From contig OZ244850.1 of assembly GCA_965220895.1 (NCBI GenBank), positions 1,897,506-1,961,505 of the forward strand: a stretch of 64,000 nucleotides of DNA, given 5' to 3'. This document shows positions 1 through 16,857 of this stretch, one piece after another (positions within the stretch are counted from its first letter, which is position 1; the number at the start of each line of letters is the position of its first letter). The notes below the pieces were generated by a model. The model did no database searches, was not told the DNA's origin, and saw only the letters and a list, made by a program, of their open reading frames with translations. The stretch comes from Gammaproteobacteria bacterium. Lineage in GTDB: Bacteria > Pseudomonadota > Gammaproteobacteria > UBA4575. The position numbers and the translations under genes are program-made.

Positions 1-81
1 TGTCAGCAAAAACTCATTCCAGTCGGAGATTTTTCCCGTGGCAAACCTGAGTCTCTACCAAACGAGCCAGACTTATTCAGT

Positions 82-849
82 ATGAGGGTACCAGTCTCCT
101 CGCCGGAACATGCTGCACAGTATATTGCTGGTGTTTATCAGGGTTTTTCTGAGATTCGTTGCAAAGCTAATGACCTCCCCCCAGGAACATCAAGCATCTC
201 AGCTGCGGCAGCGTGGATACTAGGGCGCCCAGAACTGGAGCCCGGTTTGTCGTTGTACTTTTCCCGGCTTGCCACCTCAAACCCATGGCTTCGTGAACGG
301 TTGCAGTCTTCGGCAACATCTCAAGAAGAAAACCGTCAGCAGACTATGATTAAACTTTTGTCTTATATGGTTGGCCATGTAATTCAAAATCTTGTGCTTG
401 CATTTCCGGGTCCTTTGATAAATGTGTCGGTACTGGCTGCGTATTTGGCAGTTTCTGAAACGGATGCGAGGGAATTTGCGGGAGAAGCTGAGCTTGCTGC
501 ATATACAGGCCCATTCTGCGCTTTAGGGCCCTATTATTGGCGAAGCGATGTTGATGCCATCGTCGATAGGGCTATCGAGTTGATGAATGGAGATTTACCC
601 GACGAAGAAAGCGAGCTGAATCGATTCGTGGTGGAAAGAGTAATCAATCATCCACTTGGTGCTCACAACTGTGATAGGGATGGCTGCAATGGTATGCGGG
701 GTGGATTCTGGTGTCCGTTTTCGAAGCGGCCAGTTTGTTCGCTAAATGAGTGTTCCGAAGCATCTACAGCTTGGATTCCTGATGGTGCTGACCTTTGCAG
801 AGTCGAGAAAGATTTTTTTGATGAATTTGCACCACTGTTAGGTCTTTGA
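82..849 (+). CDS. hypothetical protein with Cys-rich C-terminal cluster (CDRDGC..WCPFSKRPVC..NEC). The frame has no stop back to position 1, so the gene may be 5'-truncated by the window edge
   Basis: 255-aa ORF in visibly AT-rich DNA, where long chance ORFs are rare. No family recognised. Stop lies 15 nt before the next co-directional ORF. Confidence 0.5.
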   Translation: MRVPVSSPEHAAQYIAGVYQGFSEIRCKANDLPPGTSSISAAAAWILGRPELEPGLSLYFSRLATSNPWLRERLQSSATSQEENRQQTMIKLLSYMVGHVIQNLVLAFPGPLINVSVLAAYLAVSETDAREFAGEAELAAYTGPFCALGPYYWRSDVDAIVDRAIELMNGDLPDEESELNRFVVERVINHPLGAHNCDRDGCNGMRGGFWCPFSKRPVCSLNECSEASTAWIPDGADLCRVEKDFFDEFAPLLGL

Positions 850-864
850 GTGGCGATCTGCACC

Positions 865-1584
865 ATGGCTAAAAGATCGATAGCTCAAGTGGCAAAACAA
901 CAGCTGGTTGACCTATGGAAGGATTTTCGAGTCAATTTGCGACAAATCAATCGAGAAGTAAGACTGCCCGATTCAAACGTGATTGCCATCCTGGATAAGG
1001 CAGATGATTATGCAACTTTTGATTTAGGCCCCATAGTTCTTTATTTACCTGAAAAGGCTTCTTCAAGGAAAAACTCAAAGGTTTACGCTGTGATTGGTGG
1101 TCAGCTAAAGCTCGGACGTGACGCAGGCTGCAATGACAGCCTGCGAACACAAAGCTATGCTACAAAAATTGGATATTTTCGAGAACGGGAAGGCTGCCTC
1201 AAACATATTTTTGGGGCACACTACGATCATGATTTGACTATTGCCCATCCAGTGTTTCATGCTCAAATTTCAACGCAAGCTGAATTGGCAGAAGTAGTCT
1301 TCAATAAGTTCAGTTTTATTAATAGTCTATGCGAGGATGGGGATAAAGTAGTAGGAATGCTTGGCAATGTACGCGTACCAACATCTCAGATGGATTTCTT
1401 TGCTGTTCTGCTTCAAGTTTTTTCTGATCATCTAGTTAACGAAAGTTCTCCAGCACTCGCAAAGGAGTTTTATAAGAAGCTATATGAAAATTGTCGTTCC
1501 TTTTCTTCTTACTGTGATCATGCTGGTTTAACGGAATCCATAGAAAATAATTGTTTTCGGGCACCCTACTGGTATGAACATTAA
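865..1584 (+). CDS. hypothetical protein (240 aa; alternative GTG start at 850)
   Basis: ORF track 850..1584. ATG at 865 gives MAKRSIAQ.... Same low-GC block, apparently co-transcribed with the upstream ORF. No recognisable domain; contains an HYDHD..HPVFH His-rich stretch. Confidence 0.5.
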   Translation: MAKRSIAQVAKQQLVDLWKDFRVNLRQINREVRLPDSNVIAILDKADDYATFDLGPIVLYLPEKASSRKNSKVYAVIGGQLKLGRDAGCNDSLRTQSYATKIGYFREREGCLKHIFGAHYDHDLTIAHPVFHAQISTQAELAEVVFNKFSFINSLCEDGDKVVGMLGNVRVPTSQMDFFAVLLQVFSDHLVNESSPALAKEFYKKLYENCRSFSSYCDHAGLTESIENNCFRAPYWYEH

Positions 1585-1885
1585 CTCTCGTGTTTTAAGA
1601 TACAGCTAATTAAATTTCATTTAATTTTAATGAGTGAACAAAAATCTCTTCTTCTACACGTCTGAACGGAGACTACTTTTGGCACGCAAGCCTTATTGAA
1701 GGGGACAAGCAATTGATCCCTAGGGGAGAAGAAATTTTAGGGAATTAAATACAAGACAGATTTTAATTTATCTCTGTTGCTCTAACTCAGAACATCGTCT
1801 TTAACAGGGAGATTTGGTTTTTAGTTGCCTGCTGTGCCGCCCGCTTATTTTTGGCACAGACAGGTCGAATCGGTGTACCCAAGCA

Positions 1886-2980
1886 ATGAATCTCGAACAC
1901 ACACTGAAAATAGTGATCAGCCGTCTTATTTCCAATGACTTGGAAAATGAAGCACAAGTTAAGCAGTCTGTTATTCTGCCGGTCCTGCGCGAATTGGGGT
2001 GGGACGATACAGACCCCAAGATGTTTAAGCCGGAGTATTCAGTAGATCGTGGCCTGGTGGATTACGCGTTATTGAGTCATGGCAAGCCACAGGTCTTTAT
2101 TGAAGCTAAGCGAATTGGCGCCCTGGATTCTGGCGGCGAGGAGCAATTGTTTGGATATGCATCTAACAGGGGTGTTCCATTGCTTGTCCTGACGGACGGT
2201 GACCGTTGGGATTTTTATCTCAGCATGGCACCTGGAGTCCTGTCAGAGCAGCGGTTCTACCGGTTGGAGCTGCAGCTGGAACACAAAGTTCGAGAGTATG
2301 CAGAATTCCTGGCCGAGCATCTTCAGAAGGATCATGTTGTTTCTGGAGAAGCAAGACGCAATGCGGAGAAGCGTCTTGCCAGCAACCTAGAGCGAACCAG
2401 AGCTCGCGAAGCTATCCCGGAAGCCTGGCGGTCTTTGTTAAAGGAACCCGATGAGATACTTCGGGACTTGCTTGCTGAAAAGGTGGAGCGAGAATGCGGC
2501 ACCAAGCCAGAGCTCGATGATGTTGAATTATTTTTACGGAAACTCTTAATTTCGCCATCACAATCAAAGCCCACTACCCAAAAACCACCACGCTCTCCCA
2601 GGCTGAATCCATCACGCCCAAAATCATCGCAGTCTAAAGGGAATAAGCTTGTTGGGTTTCTGTTTAAAGGAGAGAAAGTTGAGCCCGGAACTGCCAGAGG
2701 AACTTTGGTAGAGATATTAGAAATTTTTGGACACCAAGATCCGGAGTTTATGCGGCGTTTTGCTGCACAAACGGCCAGCAAAAATCGGAATTTGGTGGCG
2801 AAGAATCGCTCGGACTTGTATAAAAAATCCCACTTAATTGACAAACATTCCAAAAAATTGAGAAACGGCTGGTGGTTGGGGACTAACCTCAGCACAACAC
2901 AAATCCAAAAGCATATCCAAACTGCATGTGGTATAGCGAGGGTAAGGGTTTCTTCCCAATTAAAACTGATCTGGCGCTAA
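1886..2980 (+). CDS. PD-(D/E)xK nuclease-fold protein: N-terminal type I restriction enzyme R-subunit N-terminal-like (HsdR_N) domain, Pro/Ser/Lys-rich linker, uncharacterised C-terminal domain
   Basis: ATG at 1886 (MNLEHTLKIV...) inside track ORF 1814..2980. Residues ~15-130 match the HsdR_N pattern (QVKQSVILPVLRELGW...GLVDYALL...KPQVFIEAKRIG...EQLFGYA...LLVLTDGDRWDFY). The C-terminal ~200 aa are unrecognised. Confidence 0.65.
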   Translation: MNLEHTLKIVISRLISNDLENEAQVKQSVILPVLRELGWDDTDPKMFKPEYSVDRGLVDYALLSHGKPQVFIEAKRIGALDSGGEEQLFGYASNRGVPLLVLTDGDRWDFYLSMAPGVLSEQRFYRLELQLEHKVREYAEFLAEHLQKDHVVSGEARRNAEKRLASNLERTRAREAIPEAWRSLLKEPDEILRDLLAEKVERECGTKPELDDVELFLRKLLISPSQSKPTTQKPPRSPRLNPSRPKSSQSKGNKLVGFLFKGEKVEPGTARGTLVEILEIFGHQDPEFMRRFAAQTASKNRNLVAKNRSDLYKKSHLIDKHSKKLRNGWWLGTNLSTTQIQKHIQTACGIARVRVSSQLKLIWR

Positions 2981-3132
2981 CCTTCAGGATCGGTAGAGAT
3001 GCCTATTCAAAAATCTTCAATATGAAGCATGTAGAGTGTTTGTTCAGGTCATGACCTGGTTCAGCCATTTCACCAGATCTTCTGCACGTAGGTGCGTATA
3101 GAGCAAAATAAATTTTTGAGGATGCTGTAGAT

Positions 3133-3319
3133 TTGGTCCAAGGTTGACTGTACCAGTTTTGTACACCTTCCAAATTCTTACAAGGTGTAAGTGATTGATT
3201 ATTCAACTTCAGTATTGGGCGGGCAAGTGCCTCAAGCAACTGATTAATAAAGATAATTTATGGTTACATACTGCCTACGAACCAGGCGGTCGGGAGTTCG
3301 AATCTCTCCGGGCGCGCCA
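3133..3319 (+). repeat. Direct repeat copy 1 (~189 bp). The last ~50 nt are the 3' half of a tRNA-Arg (anticodon-loop region through CCA, loop reads CTACGAA, i.e. ACG). attR-like junction of an integrated element
   Basis: Near-identical copy at 4347..4532. The 3' segment ctacgaaccaggcggtcgggagttcgaatctctccgggcgcgcca differs at only 2 positions from the intact tRNA at 10109..10185. Contains a small hairpin, cttaca-agg-tgtaag. Confidence 0.8.
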
Positions 3320-3536
3320 CTGATTCCTTTTTGCATCAAGCGGTTACTGCACTATGCGGTCGCCGCTTGCTGTCTCAGTAACACCAGTGCGGGACTTTTG
3401 CGGGAGTTTTCTCCGCACACCCGGTTGGTGGCCTCGATCAGGTTCTCCAACTCGGCCCCCGAGTACGCTTTATATGGAGCTCCACATTGGATATAAATCC
3501 CTTTCGTTACGTGAGCCTTGAAAAGCTGTCATTTGG

Positions 3537-3851
3537 CTATGCAGCACTCACATGCAAATGAACACCTTCATGTTCCCGCACAGCTGCCAGCACTTGCGAA
3601 ATATTATCCAAGCTAGGGTTGCCTTTGTCGCTGAGCATTCGCATCAGGCTAGTGGGTTTTTTGTCCACAATTTCAGCCAAGCCCTGAAAGCCGATAGTTG
3701 CATTCACATAATCGCGCAGCATCGTTTTGGCCACATCAGGTTCGTTATTCAGCAAACACTCAGCAGCTTCAGTAAGCAGGCCCACACGGAATTCAGGATC
3801 AGCCTGCGCCCGCTCCAAAATGGTGGTTCTAAAATCGCGTGTTAATACCAT
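3537..3851 (-). CDS. HTH antitoxin (addiction module antidote protein, HigA family)
   Basis: Internal start MVLTRDFRTTILERAQADPEFRVGLLTEAAE...NATIGFQGLAE...MLSDKGNPSLDNISQVLAAV lies 5 nt after the toxin stop. The track ORF 3537..3911 overextends. Confidence 0.8.
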   Translation of the reverse strand: MVLTRDFRTTILERAQADPEFRVGLLTEAAECLLNNEPDVAKTMLRDYVNATIGFQGLAEIVDKKPTSLMRMLSDKGNPSLDNISQVLAAVREHEGVHLHVSAA

Positions 3852-3855
3852 ATTA

Positions 3856-4182
3856 CTACCTTTGTTTTTTGCGCCGCTTGTAGCCTTTCCACAAGGCTTG
3901 CGCGAATTCAATATCGCGGTTTTGCCGCTTTTTGGTACCGCCGCCCAGCAAGATCACCAGTTCCTCACCATCGTGTCCGAAGTAAATCCGGTAGCCTGGG
4001 CCGAAATCCAGTTTATATTCGCTGACACCTTGCCCAACCCCTCTGACGTTGGAGAAATTGCCTGACTCCATGCGCGCAATGGCTGTGCGTACCTTCAATG
4101 CCGCTTGAACATTAAGCGAAGCAAACCATTTTGAGTAAGGATAGTTACCAGTTTCATCCTCATATTCAACAATGTTAATCAT
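3856..4182 (-). CDS. RelE/ParE-superfamily toxin (addiction module killer protein family, HigB-like)
   Basis: 108 aa; ...YSKWFASL...GNFSNVRGVGQGVSEYKLDFGPGYRIYFGHDGEELVILLGGGTKKRQNRDIEFAQ... is the hallmark of this toxin family. Sits immediately upstream of its HTH antitoxin on the same strand. Confidence 0.85.
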   Translation of the reverse strand: MINIVEYEDETGNYPYSKWFASLNVQAALKVRTAIARMESGNFSNVRGVGQGVSEYKLDFGPGYRIYFGHDGEELVILLGGGTKKRQNRDIEFAQALWKGYKRRKKQR

Positions 4183-4346
4183 AATCCTTTACTAACATTT
4201 ATGCTATCATTGAAATCTGGAAAAATCCACCTTGAGAGCACCTTGGAATCAATCATTTCACCGCCGGCTCCTGATGCTAAGCGGCAAGCTCAGCAGGTAG
4301 CCGATGAATGAAGATAATCGATTTTTGCATCAGGTGCAGGTGGTCG

Positions 4347-4532
4347 TTGATCCAAGGTTGACTGTACCAGTTTTGTACACCTCGCAAATTCTTACAAGGT
4401 GTAAGTGATTGATTATCGAACTTCAGTATTGAGCGGGAAAGTGCTTCAAGTAACTGATTAATAATGATAATTTATGGTTGCATACTGCCTACGAACCAGG
4501 CGGTCGGGAGTTCGAATCTCTCCGGGCCGCCA
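4347..4532 (+). repeat. Direct repeat copy 2 (~188 bp, ~94% identical to copy 1) ending in a tRNA-Arg 3'-half fragment, followed by a T8 run
   Basis: Direct comparison with 3133..3319 gives ~11 mismatches. The tRNA-like end gggccgcca has a 1-nt difference from copy 1. Confidence 0.8.
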
Positions 4533-4619
4533 TTTTTTTTGACCTGTCATCACAGCGAGTGGGTGACTATCCTGCAGTAGGCGGATTGTCCAATTGATTC
4601 CAGCTTTCCTTTTGTTGCG

Positions 4620-6656
4620 ATGAGCCATTGCCTGCGGGGTGATTCGCGATGGTTGGTGGGATTATTGCTGCTGGCGGTTTTCCCAGCGACTCTATCTGCC
4701 ACCAATCCCATTGGGGAGATCGTCGTCACCGGGACCATCGGCGAGCGCCTCGGTAGCGCAGGCAGTGCCAGCCGCATCGATGGGGATGTGCTGGCAGAGA
4801 TCCGGTACAACCACATTCACGAAGCCCTGAGCCGGGTCCCCAGCGTCTGGGTCACCCGGGGGTCTGGCCAGGAGCACCTGACTGCCATCCGCTCGGCGGT
4901 CTTTACTGGACCCGGCGCCTGCGGGAAATTTCTCTATCTTGAGGATGGCTTGCCCATTCGCCCCGCGGGGTTTTGCAACATCAACAACCTCTTCGAGGTC
5001 AATGGCGAGCAGGCAGGGGGCATCGAGGTCTGGCGTGGACCGTCAAGTGCCGTGCTGGGCGGCAATGCAATGCACGGGGTGATCAACGTGCTCACGGCCA
5101 ATCCCGAAGATGCCAGCCTGAGCTTGGAGAGCGGCTCCTACGGTTACAACCAGGCTCGTGCCACATGGGGCGGGCACACTGGCGGGCACTACGTTGGCCT
5201 GAGTGCCCACGGGAGCCAGACCGACGGCTATCGGGACGCCACAGGGTATGACCAGCAGAAGTTCTCCCTGGTCCATGCCACTGATCTTGGCACCTGGCGG
5301 GTGCGCAATACCCTGAGCGCCACCCACCTCAACCAGGAAACCGGCAGCTACGTGCAGGGCTTTGAAGCCTACAAGGACCGTGAACTGCGCCGCTCCAACC
5401 CCAACCCCGAGGCCTATCGGGACGCCTGGTCCTTGCGCGCCGCGAGTCACTGGCAGCGCGGGCCAACCCAAATTTCCGCTTACCTGCGCCGCTCGCACAT
5501 GGAGTTCCTGCAGCACTTCCTGCCCGGACAGCCGACCGAGACCAACGAGCAGACCAGTGCAGGCATGCTGGTCCGCCAAGGGTTTGAAGCCGGGGCCTGG
5601 GCCGGGCAGTTCGGCACGCAAGTCGAGGCCATGCAGGGCAGCCTGCTCGAGATTCAGGATGTACCGGCGACCGGGTCGGCCTTCCTGGTGGCCACTCGCC
5701 CCACAGGGCGACACTACGACTACGACGTCGATTCGTTCATGGCTGCGGGCTTCTACGATCTGAGCCGACCCTTGGGTGGGAAGCTGCGCCTGTTGCACAG
5801 CCTGCGCCTCGAGCACCTGCGCTACGATTATGAAAACCGGCACCTGACGGGCAACAGCCGCGACGACGGCACAGCCTGCGGCTTCGACGGCTGCTTGTAC
5901 ACCCGGCCCGCCTCCAGGGAAGACCGGTTCACCGAAGTAGCCGGGCGCTTAGGGGTCGAGCGCGATTTTGGTGCCCGCCGTTCCGGCTATGTGATGCTCA
6001 GCAGCGGATTTCGACCGCCGCAAGCTACCGAACTCTACCGCCTGCAGCAGGGGCAAACCGTGGCAGACCTGGACAGCGAACGCCTGCTGTCGGTGGAGAC
6101 CGGCTTTCGCAGCGGGGCTTGGTCGGTGTCGGCCTTCGGCCAGTGGAGCCGCGACTTCATTTTCCGTGATGCCAGTGGCTTCAACGTCAGCGACGGCAAA
6201 ACCCGGTCCGCCGGGCTCGAGTTTTCAGGCGACTGGCATCTGGGTGACCATGCCTTGAGCCTCGCCATCGGCTATGCCGTGCACAAGTACGATTTTACCC
6301 GTGATGTCGGACGAGGCGAACGGATCGAAGAAGGCAACCTGATGGATTCGGCACCGCGCTGGCTCACCCATGCCCGCTGGCGCTACCAGCCGGATGAGCG
6401 CTGGTATTCCGAGTTTGAACTGAACCAGGTGGGCGAGCACTACATTAACGCCGCCAACACTGCCAAGTATGAAGGCCACGTCGTGCTCAACTGGCGTGGT
6501 GGTTACAGGCTGAGCGAGCATATCGACCTGTTTGCCCGGGTCATCAATCTGTTCGATGAGCACTATGCCGACCGCGCCGACCATGCCTTCGGTACCTACC
6601 GCTACTTCCCGGCCATGCCGTTGCAGGGCTATGTGGGGATCAATCTGGCACTGTAA
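4620..6656 (+). CDS. TonB-dependent outer-membrane receptor
   Basis: Signal peptide followed by a plug domain (EIVVTGT...VPSVWVTRGSG...GLPIRPAGFCNINNLFEVN...VWRGPSSAVLGGNAMHGVINV) and a ~600-aa barrel. Confidence 0.85.
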   Translation: MSHCLRGDSRWLVGLLLLAVFPATLSATNPIGEIVVTGTIGERLGSAGSASRIDGDVLAEIRYNHIHEALSRVPSVWVTRGSGQEHLTAIRSAVFTGPGACGKFLYLEDGLPIRPAGFCNINNLFEVNGEQAGGIEVWRGPSSAVLGGNAMHGVINVLTANPEDASLSLESGSYGYNQARATWGGHTGGHYVGLSAHGSQTDGYRDATGYDQQKFSLVHATDLGTWRVRNTLSATHLNQETGSYVQGFEAYKDRELRRSNPNPEAYRDAWSLRAASHWQRGPTQISAYLRRSHMEFLQHFLPGQPTETNEQTSAGMLVRQGFEAGAWAGQFGTQVEAMQGSLLEIQDVPATGSAFLVATRPTGRHYDYDVDSFMAAGFYDLSRPLGGKLRLLHSLRLEHLRYDYENRHLTGNSRDDGTACGFDGCLYTRPASREDRFTEVAGRLGVERDFGARRSGYVMLSSGFRPPQATELYRLQQGQTVADLDSERLLSVETGFRSGAWSVSAFGQWSRDFIFRDASGFNVSDGKTRSAGLEFSGDWHLGDHALSLAIGYAVHKYDFTRDVGRGERIEEGNLMDSAPRWLTHARWRYQPDERWYSEFELNQVGEHYINAANTAKYEGHVVLNWRGGYRLSEHIDLFARVINLFDEHYADRADHAFGTYRYFPAMPLQGYVGINLAL

Positions 6657-6866
6657 TTTGTTATAGGTTATCGTTTCCATTCGATTCCGGCTCTACCTGG
6701 ACGCCTCACCTTCTGGTGTAGCGTCCCCGCTGCCGTTGGGGTCTGAAAATTGGCGGTTATCAAGTCTCCAGGCTGTCCGCTGGCAGGAACAAGGACAGCA
6801 TGGGCGTCTGATCATTGAGGCTGGATTACAGGAGATCGGTAAACTAGAAAATCTGGAGGAAGAACA

Positions 6867-7352
6867 ATGCGAAAAATTTTGACGGCAATCAGCCTTGGTA
6901 CTTGCCTCATGTTTGCTGGAGCGGCTTTGGCCGGGAATACACTGTCCGCAGAAGAGGCTACCTCGAAACACATGGTGGCCGAAGCCAGGCTGGCAGCCCA
7001 CTTCATCGATGCTGCCATCAGGGCGGGAATGAGCGCGGAGGCCATCAATTCCGTACTGGCCGATGTGGCACAGCATTCGGTGATTACTGAATTCTGGATC
7101 AGTGACGAGCACGGCCAGATCGCATTCACCAACATTCCCGGCACATCCTTCAGTTTTCCGACCGACCCGAACAGTGGCACGCAGGCGGCTCCCTTTGCCG
7201 CACTTTTGCACGGCAGTGAATCCGTGGTTGTCCAGGCCCTGGAAAAACGTGAGCTCGATGGCGCACCGTTCAAGTATGTCGGCGTGGCAGGTGTGGACAA
7301 GGCGCGAATCGTGCAGGTCGGGATTTCTGCTGCTGAACTGCACGGACACTGA
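6867..7352 (+). CDS. secreted hypothetical protein (signal peptide MRKILTAISLGTCLMFAGAALA)
   Basis: RBS ggagg 8 nt upstream; 161 aa; no family recognised. Confidence 0.55.
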   Translation: MRKILTAISLGTCLMFAGAALAGNTLSAEEATSKHMVAEARLAAHFIDAAIRAGMSAEAINSVLADVAQHSVITEFWISDEHGQIAFTNIPGTSFSFPTDPNSGTQAAPFAALLHGSESVVVQALEKRELDGAPFKYVGVAGVDKARIVQVGISAAELHGH

Positions 7353-7479
7353 ATGCGTTGGGTGCGCCTGGGAGCCAGGCCAATGGCTATCCCAGGCATT
7401 CCCTGAACGATAGCCGTACATCGCCATCATCCTGGACGGGCCGGTCTGGTGGCATCGTCTTAGCCAGGAGGCAGGGGGC

Positions 7480-7827
7480 TCAGAGGGGCTTGCTTTTGTC
7501 GGCCTCGTTTTCGGCCTGGAGGTTCACCGACCGGATCGCCTTGATGATTTCCTCGTGCTTGCTGTCCACATACTTTTTCTGTGTGCGCACGGACTTGTTG
7601 TAGGACATCACGATCAGCGGTGCAAACAGGGCACAGAGTATCCAGATGATGATCGGAACGAAGATGGTCCAGAGGGTGGCCACGGCGAGGATGATCGCAA
7701 GCAGCCCACCGATCAGGTTCGTGTAGGTGAACCCCAGTGGTCCAAGCAAGGTGGCCAGCAAAAATGCGATTAACGGCGATCTTTGTTGCTGCATCACCAT
7801 CCCGAATAGTTGAGCATGTCCAATCAT
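7480..7827 (-). CDS. small integral membrane protein (two hydrophobic helices), hypothetical
   Basis: Internal start MIGHAQLFGMVMQQQRSPLIAFLLATLLGPLGF...LLAIILAVATLWTIFVPIIIWILCALFAPLIV. The track ORF 7480..8073 likely overextends, and an alternative start at 7878 is possible. Confidence 0.4.
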   Translation of the reverse strand: MIGHAQLFGMVMQQQRSPLIAFLLATLLGPLGFTYTNLIGGLLAIILAVATLWTIFVPIIIWILCALFAPLIVMSYNKSVRTQKKYVDSKHEEIIKAIRSVNLQAENEADKSKPL

Positions 7828-8023
7828 AGCATTATTTGAACTGAACTCTGGAAGCCGCTCCGCTGTCTGATAGAGCATGAAGTACCCGGGATCCGGTGCA
7901 CAGGCTTTACACCGTGAAACCTGCCTGCTTGCAATCGACTGGCATCCGCTGTAGAAGCAATGGTTGCGTGAACGGTATCCCTCGTACCCCGTTGACCGGA
8001 AACCCTGAAAGGATCTGTTGACC

Positions 8024-9581: not shown

Positions 9582-10054
9582 AGGTGCACGGACACCAGGT
9601 ACCGGGAATAGCTTTCGCGCATGGATGTGCGTTCGTCCACGGAGGTTTTCAGGATGTTCTCGAGCACCACCTCGAACTCGCGCTGGATGATCTTGAAAAA
9701 GATCTCGGTGAGCGGGCGTTTTCCCGTCGGCAGGGCAATGACCTTTTGCTGGAATCGCAATGGAAAGATGGTATCCCCGCGAAACAGGATCTTGACGGCA
9801 AATACCCAGCGCCAGTCCCAGGAATATATGGTCAGTGCAGCGTTTCCTGCGTAGATTTCAAAGGACTCGCCGTCCTTCATGACGCCTTCGCTGAACACGA
9901 CCGCCTGATAGGCGCTGGTGTTGTTGGAGCTGATGAGGTTGGCCCCGACGATGTCAGCCTTCTCCGAGTAAGGGCGGAGCCGTTCATACAGGGCAGGGTA
10001 GAATAGCTGCAGGAAGGCCAGCAGCATCGGGTAGTGGTCATGCGTGGCAACCAT
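9578..10054 (-). CDS. hypothetical protein (~158 aa)
   Basis: Internal start MVATHDHYPMLLAF.... The track ORF 9578..10213 runs into the antisense of the tRNA (MARPERFELPTTWFE is reverse-translated tRNA) and is trimmed accordingly. Confidence 0.5.
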   Translation of the reverse strand: MVATHDHYPMLLAFLQLFYPALYERLRPYSEKADIVGANLISSNNTSAYQAVVFSEGVMKDGESFEIYAGNAALTIYSWDWRWVFAVKILFRGDTIFPLRFQQKVIALPTGKRPLTEIFFKIIQREFEVVLENILKTSVDERTSMRESYSRYLVSVHL

Positions 10055-10108: not shown

Positions 10109-10185
10109 GCGCCCGTAGCTCAGCTGGATAGAGTACCTGGCTTCGAACCAGGTGGTCGGGAGTTCGAATCTCTCCGGGCGCGCCA
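10109..10185 (+). tRNA. tRNA-Arg (anticodon TCG), intact, 77 nt with encoded CCA
   Basis: Manual fold: acceptor GCGCCCG/CGGGCGC, D-arm GCTC-AGCTGGATA-GAGT, anticodon stem CCTGG/CCAGG with loop CTTCGAA, T-arm GGGAG-TTCGAAT-CTCTC, discriminator G. Confidence 0.85.
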
Positions 10186-10198
10186 TTTTGATTTCGGT

Positions 10199-11491
10199 CC
10201 GTACCGGGGACATGGTATACGTTTTATACCGGAGACATGGTTAACACTTTTTCGGTATAAACGGGTTCTCTGCGGGTTCGACCCGTCCGGCTTCTTCGTC
10301 GAAGAAGCCTAAATCATATTGCATGAAGCTGACAAGCCAGATGCGGTCTTCGACCTCCCGTATGCCCACGACCTGGCCGGCGAAGACGGTGCTGAGGTTG
10401 ATCTTTCGTCGTCCGATACAGATGCGCCCGCACTGGGTGACCTTGAGGGTGCGGTCGTGGAAGGGGTATTGCGGGGGTTGCGGCGGGGCATAGGGGCGTG
10501 TGGAGGGTGTATAGACATCTGCGGGATACAGGCCGCCGAGGGCCTGGTGCGGTCGTTCATGGTTGTATACCCGGATAAAGTCGTCGAAGCGGCTTTGCTG
10601 TTGCAGGGAGTTGAAGGAAGCGGGTCGGGTGGCTTCTTTCTTGAGGGTCAGGTGCATGCGTTCATGGCGCCCGTTCTGCTGGGGCTGTCCGGGCTGGATG
10701 CGTTCGATGCGGATGCCCAGGCGCAGCCACCAGACCGACAGGGAACTGAGGCCGAACAGGGCATTGGGCGAGGCGAAGGGGACGCCGTGATCGGTGCGGA
10801 TGGCCTGGGGCAGCCCATAGGCGTTGAAGGCCTGCTCGAAGACCGTGCGTGCGAAGGGGGATTTTGTCGAGTCCAGGGCCTCACAGGCAAGCAGGTAGCG
10901 GGAGTGATAGTCGGTGAGAGTAAGGGGATAGCAGTAGGCCTGGTTGCCGAGGCGGAACTGGCCCTTGTAGTCGGCACACCACAGGGCGTTGGGGGCTTGT
11001 GCATCGCTTAAAGCGGTGCCTTGGGCACGCCGGCGCCGGCGTTTGCGCCGTTTCACCAGGCCGTGACGGTCCAGCACCGCGTGGATCGTGCTCTTGGCCG
11101 GAGGATGGACCAGGGCATAGGCCCGCATCAGCTTCTCGCGGATCTTCGGCGCCCCCCAGCTCGGATGGTCACGCTTGATGCGCAGGATCGTTCGCTCCAC
11201 CGGGTACGGCAGGCGGTTGGCATGACGATAGGGCCTGCGGCTGCGATCGTCCAGCCCCTGCAGACCGCAGTCGCGATAGCGATTGAAGATCTTGTATCCG
11301 GTCACCCGGGAGATGCCGAACTCCCGGCACACCACCGCCATCTTCTCGCCCTCCAGCAACCGGGCTATAAATCGTATACGTTCATCCATCGGCTTACACT
11401 CTCTCCAAGGCATTCCAAGGTCTCCCTCAAATGCTCTATTGTGTAAACCATGTCTCCGGTATTTGCTGTAAGCTATGTCTCGGGTACTACA
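10199..11491 (-). mobile_element. IS481-family insertion sequence (~1.29 kb) inserted 8 nt downstream of tRNA-Arg, apparently flanked by a 6-bp TTCGGT duplication (10193..10198 and 11492..11497)
   Basis: Outer imperfect IRs: GTACCGGGGACATGGTATAC at 10201 and GTAAGCTATGTCTCGGGTAC at 11468 on the opposite strand. A better-matched inner IR pair, CCGGAGACATGGTT(A/T)ACAC, sits at 10229..10247 and 11441..11459. Single DDE transposase ORF inside. Confidence 0.75.
10241..11389 (-). CDS. IS481-family DDE transposase (integrase catalytic core)
   Basis: N-terminus MDERIRFIARLLEGEKMAVVCREFGISRVTGYKIFNRYRDCGLQGL, an rve-type core (...WCADYKG...TDHGVPF...) and C-terminal ...YNHERPHQALGG.... The track ORF start at 11503 overextends past the IR. 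Confidence 0.85.
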   Translation of the reverse strand: MDERIRFIARLLEGEKMAVVCREFGISRVTGYKIFNRYRDCGLQGLDDRSRRPYRHANRLPYPVERTILRIKRDHPSWGAPKIREKLMRAYALVHPPAKSTIHAVLDRHGLVKRRKRRRRRAQGTALSDAQAPNALWCADYKGQFRLGNQAYCYPLTLTDYHSRYLLACEALDSTKSPFARTVFEQAFNAYGLPQAIRTDHGVPFASPNALFGLSSLSVWWLRLGIRIERIQPGQPQQNGRHERMHLTLKKEATRPASFNSLQQQSRFDDFIRVYNHERPHQALGGLYPADVYTPSTRPYAPPQPPQYPFHDRTLKVTQCGRICIGRRKINLSTVFAGQVVGIREVEDRIWLVSFMQYDLGFFDEEAGRVEPAENPFIPKKC

Positions 11492-11741
11492 TTCGGTTGT
11501 CATCTTTTGCAGGGCAGCAGAATACGCTTGTCTTGTATGAAGTCTGGAACCCCCACTTCAGGGCTGCATGTCGCAGCCCTTGTTATTGTTTAGACCATAT
11601 CTTTAGAAGTTACTGATCCCAAGGGGCGCATTTGCCTTTGAATTAATATTCATATTAATAATAATTACTATTAACACTATGATTCGTTTTCATAAAAATG
11701 TAATATGCGCACCAGAATGTGACAGTTTCTTGGAGATACCG

Positions 11742-15501: not shown

Positions 15502-16857
15502 ATGGAAATCAAGAAAGTCATCATACTACTGGTATTTTTGCTAATCCCGGCCTTGTCCCAGGCCACCAATGGCTATTTCTCGCATGGCTCAGGACTCAAG
15601 AACCGTGCCCTGGCAGGGGCCGGTGTCGCCTTTCCGCAAGATGCGATGGCGGGTGCCACCAACCCGGCCGGCATGGCCTTTGTCGGTAATCGCTACGATA
15701 TAGGCGCGGTGCTGTTCAAGCCCGATCGCGGGTACTCACCCAGCGCCAGCCTGGCCAATGGCAGCGGTGGTGCATTCACCATGGGAGCAGGATCCGAGAC
15801 GAGCCGCAACCGCGGTTTCATCATCCCGAGTTTCGGGCTCAACTACATGCTGAGTGAACAGGATGCCGTGGGATTTTCCGTGTACGGCAACGGCGGCATG
15901 AACACCTCCTACAAATCGGGCAGTGCCTCATTTGATCCGTTCGGGATGCGGGGTCAAGGCGTTTCCTTTCCTGGTGCACTGGGCGCAGGGACTGCGGGTG
16001 TGGATCTGATGCAGGTGTTCTTCAATCTTTCGTACGCGCGTCAATTCTCGGACCGATTCTCGGTCGGGGTCAGCCCGTTGCTGACGATGCAGACGTTTCG
16101 AAGTAACGGCCTGGATGCATTTGCGCCCTTTACGAAAACCTTCGTGTCAAGCCAGGGGACCCGGATGCCGAATCACCTGACCCAAAATGGTACCGACCGT
16201 GCCTACGGCTGGGGCCTGCAGGTGGGCATGCTGGCCAGGGATATCGCCGATGCAGCGGACCTGGGCATCTCGTATCGCACGAAGATCGACATGGAACGAT
16301 GGGAGGACTACGCGGACCTGTTTGCAGAAGACGGCACCTTTGACATTCCCTCCACCCTGTGGGCGGGCGTGGCCATCGAGGTCGCTGAAAACATGACGCT
16401 TGTGGCGGATTATCAGCGTATCTGGTACGGGGACAGCGATGCGATCAGCAATGGGGTGCAGAACCTGTTTGACTGCCCGGCTCTGGGCGGACAGGATCTT
16501 GAAAGCTGTCTCGGCGGTGATCGCGGGGCCGGGTTCGGATGGGATGATATGGATATCTTCAAGGTCGGGCTGCAGTGGCAGGCCAGACCCCGCATCATCG
16601 GGCGGATCGGTTACAGTCATGCCAGCCAGCCCATCGGCCGCGACCAGGTACTGTTCAACCTCCTGGCCCCGGCCGTGGTTGAAGACCACATCACCCTGGG
16701 TGCAACAGTCACTACCCGGGTCGGTGATATCACGCTTGAGGCCATGCATACCTTTGGCAATTCCGTGAAGGGGCCCAATCCTTTTGACCCCACGCAGACG
16801 GTACGGCTCAGCATGGAGCAGTTTGAAATCGGAGCCGGCTGGTCCGTGAAATTCTGA
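15502..16857 (+). CDS. fadL: FadL/OmpP1/TodX-family outer-membrane transporter for hydrophobic compounds
   Basis: Start MEIKKVIILLVFLLIPALSQA followed by NGYFSHGSGLKNRALAGAGVAFPQDAMAGATNPAGMAF; C-terminal ...GWSVKF. Confidence 0.85.
   Translation: MEIKKVIILLVFLLIPALSQATNGYFSHGSGLKNRALAGAGVAFPQDAMAGATNPAGMAFVGNRYDIGAVLFKPDRGYSPSASLANGSGGAFTMGAGSETSRNRGFIIPSFGLNYMLSEQDAVGFSVYGNGGMNTSYKSGSASFDPFGMRGQGVSFPGALGAGTAGVDLMQVFFNLSYARQFSDRFSVGVSPLLTMQTFRSNGLDAFAPFTKTFVSSQGTRMPNHLTQNGTDRAYGWGLQVGMLARDIADAADLGISYRTKIDMERWEDYADLFAEDGTFDIPSTLWAGVAIEVAENMTLVADYQRIWYGDSDAISNGVQNLFDCPALGGQDLESCLGGDRGAGFGWDDMDIFKVGLQWQARPRIIGRIGYSHASQPIGRDQVLFNLLAPAVVEDHITLGATVTTRVGDITLEAMHTFGNSVKGPNPFDPTQTVRLSMEQFEIGAGWSVKF

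Follow-up and report, generated by a model that had tools for sequence, protein, structure and literature searches.

How does a chromosome come to carry two copies of the 3' half of one tRNA gene, 1.2 kb apart and each preceded by the same arm of DNA that is not tRNA-like? The question is raised by a direct repeat at 3133-3319 and 4347-4532 of the 64,000-nt stretch analysed here (the window; contig OZ244850.1 of assembly GCA_965220895.1, an uncultured gammaproteobacterium). We conclude that the repeats are right-end attachment (att) junctions, each made of a P arm and a core, of islands inserted in a tRNA-Arg(ACG) gene to the left of the window, within its 3' 45 nt. The window thus holds an island array at tRNA-Arg(ACG), to which we assign a probability of about 0.95, and this array is partly decayed. 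For the history that we favour, three integration events that left a composite piece between the two repeats, we put the figure at about 0.6.

A repeat search of the window returned a two-copy direct repeat (3133-3313 and 4347-4527; 181 nt, 94% identity, 1214 nt spacing), in line with the ~189-bp copies of ~94% identity described in an earlier reading made without database searches (the sequence-only reading). The parts of the two copies, and the only complete gene related to their tRNA ends, are the following.

3133-3319 and 4347-4532: full repeat copies A and B, ~94% identical, each a 138-nt non-tRNA arm followed by the last 48-49 nt of tRNA-Arg(ACG).
3133-3270, plus strand: P arm of copy A, the right arm of the island to its left (element 1); 92% identical to the arm of copy B and not tRNA-like.
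3271-3319, plus strand: core of copy A, the 3' 49 nt of tRNA-Arg(ACG), aligned with the tRNA-Arg(ACG) gene of the relative L002, an attR of the contig L003 and the TCG genes.
4347-4484, plus strand: P arm of copy B, 92% identical to arm A.
4485-4532, plus strand: core of copy B, 48 nt with a 1-nt deletion, the outer attR core.
10109-10185, plus strand: intact tRNA-Arg(TCG), found with ARAGORN and Rfam, the sole intact tRNA in the window.

On their own, the arms agree at 127 of 138 positions (92%) in a global alignment. A 31-nt word of the arm (CCAAGGTTGACTGTACCAGTTTTGTACACCT) occurs exactly twice in the 64 kb, where shuffled sequences predict 0, and the 138-nt arm has no further occurrence elsewhere in the window. 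The tRNA part of both copies runs from the anticodon loop to the CCA end, and its T-arm word occurs three times in the window, in the two copies and in the intact tRNA-Arg(TCG). Alignment confirmed that both fragments have an ACG anticodon and a C in the variable loop, against TCG and a T in the intact gene, which differs from the fragments at 3 positions. Copy A is intact, while copy B has lost 1 nt in the acceptor-stem part (GGGCGCGCCA to GGGCCGCCA). The 138-nt 5' parts gave no Rfam match at E ≤ 1, the sole family matched being real tRNA, and the repeat folds no better than shuffled sequence (z = −1.24); on the same two grounds we discarded the possibility that the repeat acts as an RNA. Hence the earlier description of each copy, with ~50 nt of tRNA-Arg (48-49 nt by our count) behind a 5' part that is not tRNA-like, was borne out.

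Which gene did these fragments come from? Related genomes were reached through homologs of the TonB-dependent receptor encoded right of copy B, the close ones being labelled in the sources as proteins of gammaproteobacterial metagenome-assembled genomes (MAGs).

4533-6656, plus strand: B' flank and TonB-dependent receptor gene (gene at 4620-6656; Pfam Plug and TonB_dep_Rec_b-barrel), chromosomal DNA right of the array.

In the closest relative found (L002), whose receptor is 91% identical in amino acids to that of the window, the orthologous receptor gene (10001) has an intact tRNA-Arg(ACG) 25 nt ahead of it, at 9899-9975, and before that tRNA a tRNA-Ser(GCT) on the other strand: an empty site, without an island. 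Window positions 4485-6840 are 90% identical in nucleotides to L002 9927-12284, and this homology begins inside tRNA-Arg(ACG), at the anticodon arm. The T-rich flank after copy B (TTTTTTTTGACCTGTCATCAC) likewise agrees with the flank downstream of the L002 gene. Since the homology starts at 4485, inside copy B, this copy has the structure P-O-B' and is the outer attR. Because the empty site of L002 falls at the place of copy B, the gene at 10109 was not the target, and we regard it as a paralogous gene foreign to these junctions. Base composition changes at the same border, from a GC fraction of 0.40-0.52 over positions 1 to ~4500 to 0.54-0.65 in the following 6 kb (0.59-0.65 in the receptor stretch). 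The sequence-only reading had named tRNA-Arg(ACG) as the target and judged the geometry incompatible with integration into the gene at 10109. Both claims held, the second because the fragments, which have ACG-type bases, precede the gene and share its orientation; and the empty site for which it had proposed to look in relatives is seen in L002, with the tRNA directly before the receptor gene.

The same tRNA-Ser(GCT)/tRNA-Arg(ACG) pair stands upstream of the receptor gene in two further contigs, L094 and L095. Together with L003, the five genomes display five states of the locus: empty, reduced to a 1-kb scar, with a 5-kb remnant, with an 8.6-kb island, and with the array of the window. The tRNA-Arg(ACG)/TonB-receptor locus is a hotspot in this lineage of gammaproteobacteria, with integration recurring there.

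The DNA that follows copy A is of another kind.

3320-3465, minus strand: P' arm and tyrosine integrase stump, that is a stop codon and then the last 37 codons at 3355-3465 (ending in YSGAELENLIEATNRVCGENSRKSPALVLLRQQAATA before the stop).

These 146 nt are 89% identical to L003:15056-15201, which adjoins a tRNA-Arg(TCG) gene, and the identity is again 89% when the core is included (window 3271-3465 against L003 15007-15201). From 3275 on, over 45 nt, core copy A is identical with the attR core of the L003 island. The stump matches the L003 integrase at 94.6% over 37 aa (tblastn, E = 2e-16), a 362-aa tyrosine integrase with a PF00589 catalytic domain. As a P' arm and an integrase stump come directly after core copy A, this copy is a P-O-P' junction between two elements. 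The stump at 3355-3465 is the sole trace of an integrase that we found in the 64-kb window, and no other of either class (see below for the classes) was detected there.

L003 carries this integrase twice (97.8% identical), once at tRNA-Arg(TCG) and once at the tRNA-Arg(ACG) site; the latter gene is cut by the contig start and belongs to an island of ~8.6 kb that ends in the 45-nt core right before the TonB gene. The two islands, L003:1-8489 in tRNA-Arg(ACG) and L003:15056-21041 in tRNA-Arg(TCG), are nearly identical, which argues that one integrase can use both paralogs, whose 3' 45 nt differ at two positions. The L003 attL at the TCG gene retains TCG-type bases up to the variable loop, which fits either a crossover in the core 3' of the variable loop or an attP adapted to the TCG gene.

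To place this integrase in its family we scanned the JGI metagenomes and collected 80 loci with relatives of it (L011-L090). About 30 of the metagenome loci have the integrase adjoining a tRNA-Arg gene. Where the integrase is at least 70% identical to that of L003 and the contig reaches a tRNA, the tRNA is tRNA-Arg(ACG), 30-45 nt beyond the stop codon, except in L033 (tRNA-Thr). Integrases less similar than this adjoin the TCG gene or a tRNA gene for Thr, Pro, Lys, Phe, Asn or Met. Related integrases that target tRNA-Arg(TCG) are those of L003, L053, L055, L058 and L080.

Do the arms on the two sides of core A belong to the same kind of element? We searched the window with a strict pattern of paired sites, TG-N5-NTTT-TG-N4/5 with matched half-sites, and it has only three matches in the 64 kb.

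3149-3166, plus strand: tandem arm-type site of the TGTAC class, TGTACCAgtttTGTACAC, in P arm A.
3388-3405, plus strand: tandem arm-type site of the GCGGGA class, TGCGGGActttTGCGGGA, in the P' arm, with two direct half-sites 11 nt apart.
4363-4380, plus strand: tandem site of the TGTAC class, TGTACCAgtttTGTACAC, in P arm B.

The site at 3149 is ~125 nt left of the 45-nt identity block; the corresponding P-arm distances are 114 nt in L003 and ~108-111 nt in the two phages described below. The GCGGGA site at 3388 begins 69 nt after the core end, and in JGI loci the same site is found 67-70 nt after tRNA-Arg. When its half-sites are required to be identical, the strict pattern is restricted in the JGI loci to the integrase 3' end, at one place per locus, with a run of three half-sites in L066 as the exception. 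A perfect 7-mer tandem with a period of 10-12 nt is present at the integrase 3' end in 58 of 73 JGI loci, compared with 9% of random 220-nt windows. Measured from the 3' end of tRNA-Arg, the site starts at 66-72 nt in every locus except one; for other tRNA targets the distance is 42-58 nt, with three exceptions at 68-69 nt. The two half-sites co-vary (GCGGGA, GTGGGG, GCCGGA, GCCGAA, GCGTGA), and this co-variation spans at least seven sequence classes across the integrase family. In some loci the site lies inside codons and in others past the stop codon, and the reading frames differ, so that it is conserved as DNA and not as coding sequence.

The closest sequenced relatives of the GCGGGA-class integrase are those of the phages phiPSA1 (L096) and CF418P1 (L097), 48-51% identical in amino acids, and both phages have an intact attP. 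In each, a half-site pair (GTGGGGAC in Achromobacter phage CF418P1, AGTGAC in Pseudomonas phage phiPSA1) lies ~110 nt left of the tRNA 3' core and the same pair ~50 nt right of it. L003 has GCGGGA-type pairs in both arms. Altogether, the P and P' sites agree in the four elements with both arms readable: L003 (GCGGGA), L094 (TGTAC), CF418P1 and phiPSA1. The integrases of lambda and P22 bind arm-type sites, and by analogy the half-site pairs would be arm-type sites bound by the integrase, although the N-terminus of the L003 integrase gave no arm-binding Pfam domain.

TGTAC-class elements are also known from this locus. L094 contains a 5-kb element at the tRNA-Arg(ACG) site, with an integrase stump and, 67 nt past the tRNA, TGTACTGaattTGTACTA; at its far end, in the same chromosomal position, stand an arm and a core homologous to the arm of the window (77.5% identity). 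L095 retains a 1-kb scar with TGTGCCAgtttTGTGCTA, likewise 67 nt after tRNA-Arg(ACG). The P' arms of both are thus of the TGTAC or TGTGC class and are accompanied by integrase stumps of a different clade, whose closest sequenced relatives are the integrases of the Shigella phages SfII, SfV and SfI (C-terminus ~51% identical to those of SfII/SfV).

Beyond this locus and its relatives the arm is rare. Words of the arm gave no match in IMG/VR or in the JGI metagenomes; two IMG/VR matches to a 17-mer arm word fall within structural genes of phages that have no tRNA in the vicinity, and we set them aside as chance. A plasmid search with the repeat matched the tRNA part only. A scan of the genomes of 185,579 species produced one match, in a Nitrospirota MAG (L001), with only a 22-mer in common and in another context. 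This exact 22-nt match to the P-arm site of the window, at L001:7824-7845, lies 43 nt after a tRNA-Ala(GGC) and over the last codons of an integrase; ~0.07 chance matches are expected in the whole collection, and only 155 nt beyond the match are readable. We rejected the idea that it is an integrase coding fragment shared with the arm, since its frame differs from that of the L003 GCGGGA site; the same TGTAC-class arm site, placed in the P' arm of an L001 element, accounts for it better.

What lies to the left of copy A? The window opens on a low-GC segment with the following content.

1-3132, plus strand: right-hand part of element 1 (island cargo), low in GC, matched by L005 and absent from L002, L094 and L095.
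Up to 849, plus strand: 365-aa gene, of which the window start leaves only the 3' part.
850-1584, plus strand: open reading frame (ORF) of 244 aa.
1814-2980, plus strand: ORF with an HSDR_N-like nuclease fold.

Logan contig L005, 5.4 kb long, shares 93% identity with window 1-3304 and stops within the core. It reaches 2.1 kb further left, where it adds a 614-aa HATPase_c protein, and its arm is 97.8% identical to the arm of copy A and 91.3% to that of copy B. As L005 carries the cargo and a copy-A-like arm together, the arm belongs to element 1 and the window begins inside element 1, just as had been proposed from the sequence alone.

The cargo of element 1 (window 1-2980; L005:1-5070) forms a four-gene block of 614-aa HATPase_c, 365-aa, 245-aa and 364-aa HSDR_N-like proteins, and may be an undescribed defence module. 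Its 365-aa and 245-aa proteins have no domain match, and the HSDR_N-like fold is the only informative domain among the ORFs left of copy A. PADLOC returned no match for this cargo or for the toxin-antitoxin pair described below. The called homolog of the HSDR_N-like ORF (P0121) has 364 aa and covers 94% of it, so the gene probably starts downstream of the TTG at 1814. Without the rest of the block, homologs of this gene at ~67% identity recur in variable regions of L006 and L007, in unrelated contexts with neither tRNA nor arm.

Between the integrase stump and the P arm of copy B lies a toxin-antitoxin cassette.

3466-3482: probable deletion junction between stump and cassette; homology to the L003 integrase ends at 3465 and homology to the L093 cassette starts at 3483.
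3483-4330, minus strand: toxin-antitoxin cassette, between the stump and P arm B.
3537-3851, minus strand: antidote-like antitoxin, 104 aa, with a weak TIGR02684 match (17.8 bits).
3856-4182, minus strand: RelE/ParE-family toxin, 108 aa, TIGR02683 at 96.9 bits (cut-off 62.85).

The cassette, which also has a weak Gp49 match, is separated from the stump by 17 nt and from P arm B by 16 nt. It is 93.8% identical over 855 nt to L093:3975-4828, where it directly follows an unrelated P4-type integrase with an Arm-DNA-bind_3 domain, and a near-identical cassette beside an unrelated integrase indicates that the pair moves between islands as a unit. The whole piece at 3320-4532 has no integrase gene, both of its arms are full length, its P' arm is of the GCGGGA class and its P arm of the TGTAC class, and its core B carries the 1-nt deletion. 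As the P' arm at the stump and the adjacent P arm are of different classes, the 1.2-kb middle piece is probably composite, and probably the product of at least three integrations and one deletion.

The sequence-only reading had proposed two elements with homologous P arms and integrases, integrated one after the other. Successive integration stood, as did the homology of the P arms (92%); the number of elements and the match of their integrases probably do not, given a stump with a GCGGGA-class P' arm beside TGTAC-class P arms, which points to at least three events or a hybrid.

The history that we propose runs as follows. Tyrosine integrases, of the heterobivalent lambda/P22 kind by analogy, would have inserted islands successively into the 3' 45 nt of tRNA-Arg(ACG), each insertion restoring the tRNA with the core copy that the element brought and displacing the older core to the right. 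An old TGTAC-class island with the toxin-antitoxin cassette at its right end would have integrated to begin with, followed by a GCGGGA-class island that entered the tRNA. A deletion would then have removed the DNA between about codon 325 of the GCGGGA-class integrase and the border of the antitoxin gene, limited there because reaching further would kill the cell. Element 1, a second TGTAC-class island, would have entered the tRNA last. The middle piece would accordingly join the left end of the GCGGGA-class island to the right end of the TGTAC-class island with its cassette, and the array would read, from the left, tRNA-Arg(ACG) (off the window), element 1, P arm (TGTAC) with core A, P' arm (GCGGGA) with the stump, toxin-antitoxin, P arm (TGTAC) with core B and the TonB-receptor gene. 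This order follows from the premise that each newcomer uses the intact gene, and the intact core A and damaged core B agree with it; we infer also that a tRNA and an integrase are present left of the window.

How firmly can this history be preferred to others? Its nearest competitor holds that there were exactly two elements: 3320-4532 would be a single decayed island, its integrase cut to 37 codons, with a TGTAC site that another protein binds or that the integrase tolerates. This account needs the fewest events, explains why both att arms are full length on either side of the cassette, and finds a parallel in L003, where a toxin-antitoxin pair likewise adjoins the P arm of a single 8.6-kb island. 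On the other hand, the same half-site stands in both arms in four of the four readable elements, and P' arms of the TGTAC class do exist in the lineage with a different integrase clade, the one ~51% identical to SfII/SfV at the C-terminus. We consider two elements the less probable account, albeit one to be taken seriously. Several observations weigh on its side, or otherwise count against three events. The rule that arm sites match within an element is drawn from four elements only, and the sites themselves are not uniformly clean, the TGTAC site of L005 having two substitutions and the P-arm site of L094 being degenerate. When the N-terminal identity of the integrases was crudely compared with site class, no clear sign of arm specificity emerged. 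The P-arm site could belong to another protein, for example an excisionase, in which case a single two-armed hybrid element would be enough. Neither the tRNA-Arg(ACG) gene nor any integrase of element 1 is within the window, and exact-protein look-ups of three window proteins in a contig index matched nothing. As the arms of copies A and B are both 77.5% identical to that of L094, they do not establish the relative ages of the junctions.

The remaining alternatives fare much worse. With two direct copies only 1.2 kb apart, a local duplication of arm and core by unequal crossing-over or replication slippage, with no second integration, comes readily to mind; yet this is no tandem duplication, since neither flank recurs (an integrase P' arm comes after copy A, the chromosomal B' flank after copy B), the copies have diverged by 6-8%, and the unequal identities of the L005 arm to copies A and B (97.8% and 91.3%) point to separate lineages, which makes such a duplication very improbable. 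That the copies end in tRNA-like sequence would also suit a dispersed, tRNA-derived repeat of the MITE or SINE kind, and the sequence-only reading had named its occurrence at many unrelated loci as the observation that would tell against islands. What we found was two copies only in 64 kb, one 22-mer-only match among the genomes of 185,579 species, none in the JGI metagenomes or IMG/VR and the tRNA part alone in plasmids, while other copies of the arm occurred only at the same chromosomal site (L094) or the same island end (L005); we give this explanation next to no credence. Equally implausible is that the islands entered the tRNA-Arg(TCG) gene at 10109 and were later rearranged. Related integrases do use tRNA-Arg(TCG), in L003 and the four metagenome loci listed above, but the fragments carry ACG-type bases and come before the gene at 10109, facing the same way, and the empty site of L002 puts tRNA-Arg(ACG) exactly at copy B, which refutes it. 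We also entertained, as a long shot, that the middle piece is a maintained, minimal cis-mobilisable cassette whose hybrid arms ride with either class of island while the toxin-antitoxin pair locks the array, and that the co-varying paired half-sites form a readable arm-recognition code, which sets the islands of this phiPSA1/P22-like family that can excise together.

An array of stacked islands is of a well-known kind, tandem accretion and decay of islands, and as such is ordinary biology, here with a new example in an uncultured gammaproteobacterium. Tandem accretion and cis-mobilizable elements (CIMEs) are described for the ICESt1/ICESt3 family of Streptococcus thermophilus (reviewed in PMC5704250), and Dehalococcoides, with its tandem ssrA islands, offers another case (PMC3146451). 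As in those systems, successive integrations at one target left segments separated by direct repeats of the gene 3' end, older members decay and lose the integrase while retaining att sites, and internal junctions are chimeric att sites. The window has two direct att-type junctions at one gene, copy A as P-O-P' and copy B as P-O-B', where accretion is recognised by at least two; it also has three marks of a tRNA island, a direct repeat of the tRNA 3' end at the far end, an empty site in a relative and a shift in base composition. Unlike ICESt1/ICESt3, the target is tRNA-Arg(ACG) in an uncultured gammaproteobacterium and the islands are small, with no visible conjugation genes. Unlike a single CIME, the middle piece has arms of two site classes and, judging from its sequence, is probably a fusion of two remnants.

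The integrases resemble the heterobivalent lambda/P22 type in the PF00589 domain, in an attP that overlaps the int 3' end, in a tRNA 3' core and in tandem direct sites about one helical turn apart in both arms (L003, L094, CF418P1, phiPSA1), and the co-variation of the arm sites fits the standard model for integrases of this kind. They differ in that the arm sites of this clade are defined by co-variation and not by biochemistry, the N-terminus matches no arm-binding domain model, and the half-site sequence varies widely among close relatives. The toxin-antitoxin pair is like type II RelE/ParE (HI1419-like) modules with an HI1420-like antidote, having a toxin above the TIGR02683 cut-off and a small antidote gene next to it, although the match of the antitoxin is weak (17.8 bits). 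It is also like island-borne modules in adjoining an island end, as in L003 and L093, and it may stabilise the array.

Our result marks the right border of an island array and leads us to expect a tRNA-Arg(ACG) gene, and probably also a TGTAC-class integrase, to the left of the window. The paired arm site, which co-varies and keeps a fixed distance from the tRNA across a widespread family of integrases, can be used to match att arms in composite islands.

Finally, we examined the chromosomal DNA to the right of copy B, where the TonB-receptor gene is followed by MsrP/MsrQ-like genes, tRNA-Arg(TCG) and then an insertion sequence of the IS481 family. The MsrP/MsrQ-like assignment comes from Pfam Oxidored_molyb and Ferric_reduct matches on the L002 homologs. 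Window 6841-7905, ~1 kb between the receptor and MsrP-like genes, is also present in L003, L094 and L095 and has no counterpart in L002; it carries ORFs of 161 aa and 197 aa, neither with a Pfam match. In L002 the urease accessory gene ureD comes after tRNA-Arg(TCG), and the window beyond 10186 has no L002 match. There, 16 nt after tRNA-Arg(TCG), the IS481-family insertion sequence occupies 10201-11487, with 47-nt imperfect inverted repeats and a transposase (10241-11503, minus strand) with rve/rve_3, HTH and LZ_Tnp_IS481 domains. After the tRNA-Arg(TCG) of L094, ~40 nt at 15663-15701 resemble a P' arm of the GCGGGA class with no island behind it, and are probably the scar of an excised or deleted island.

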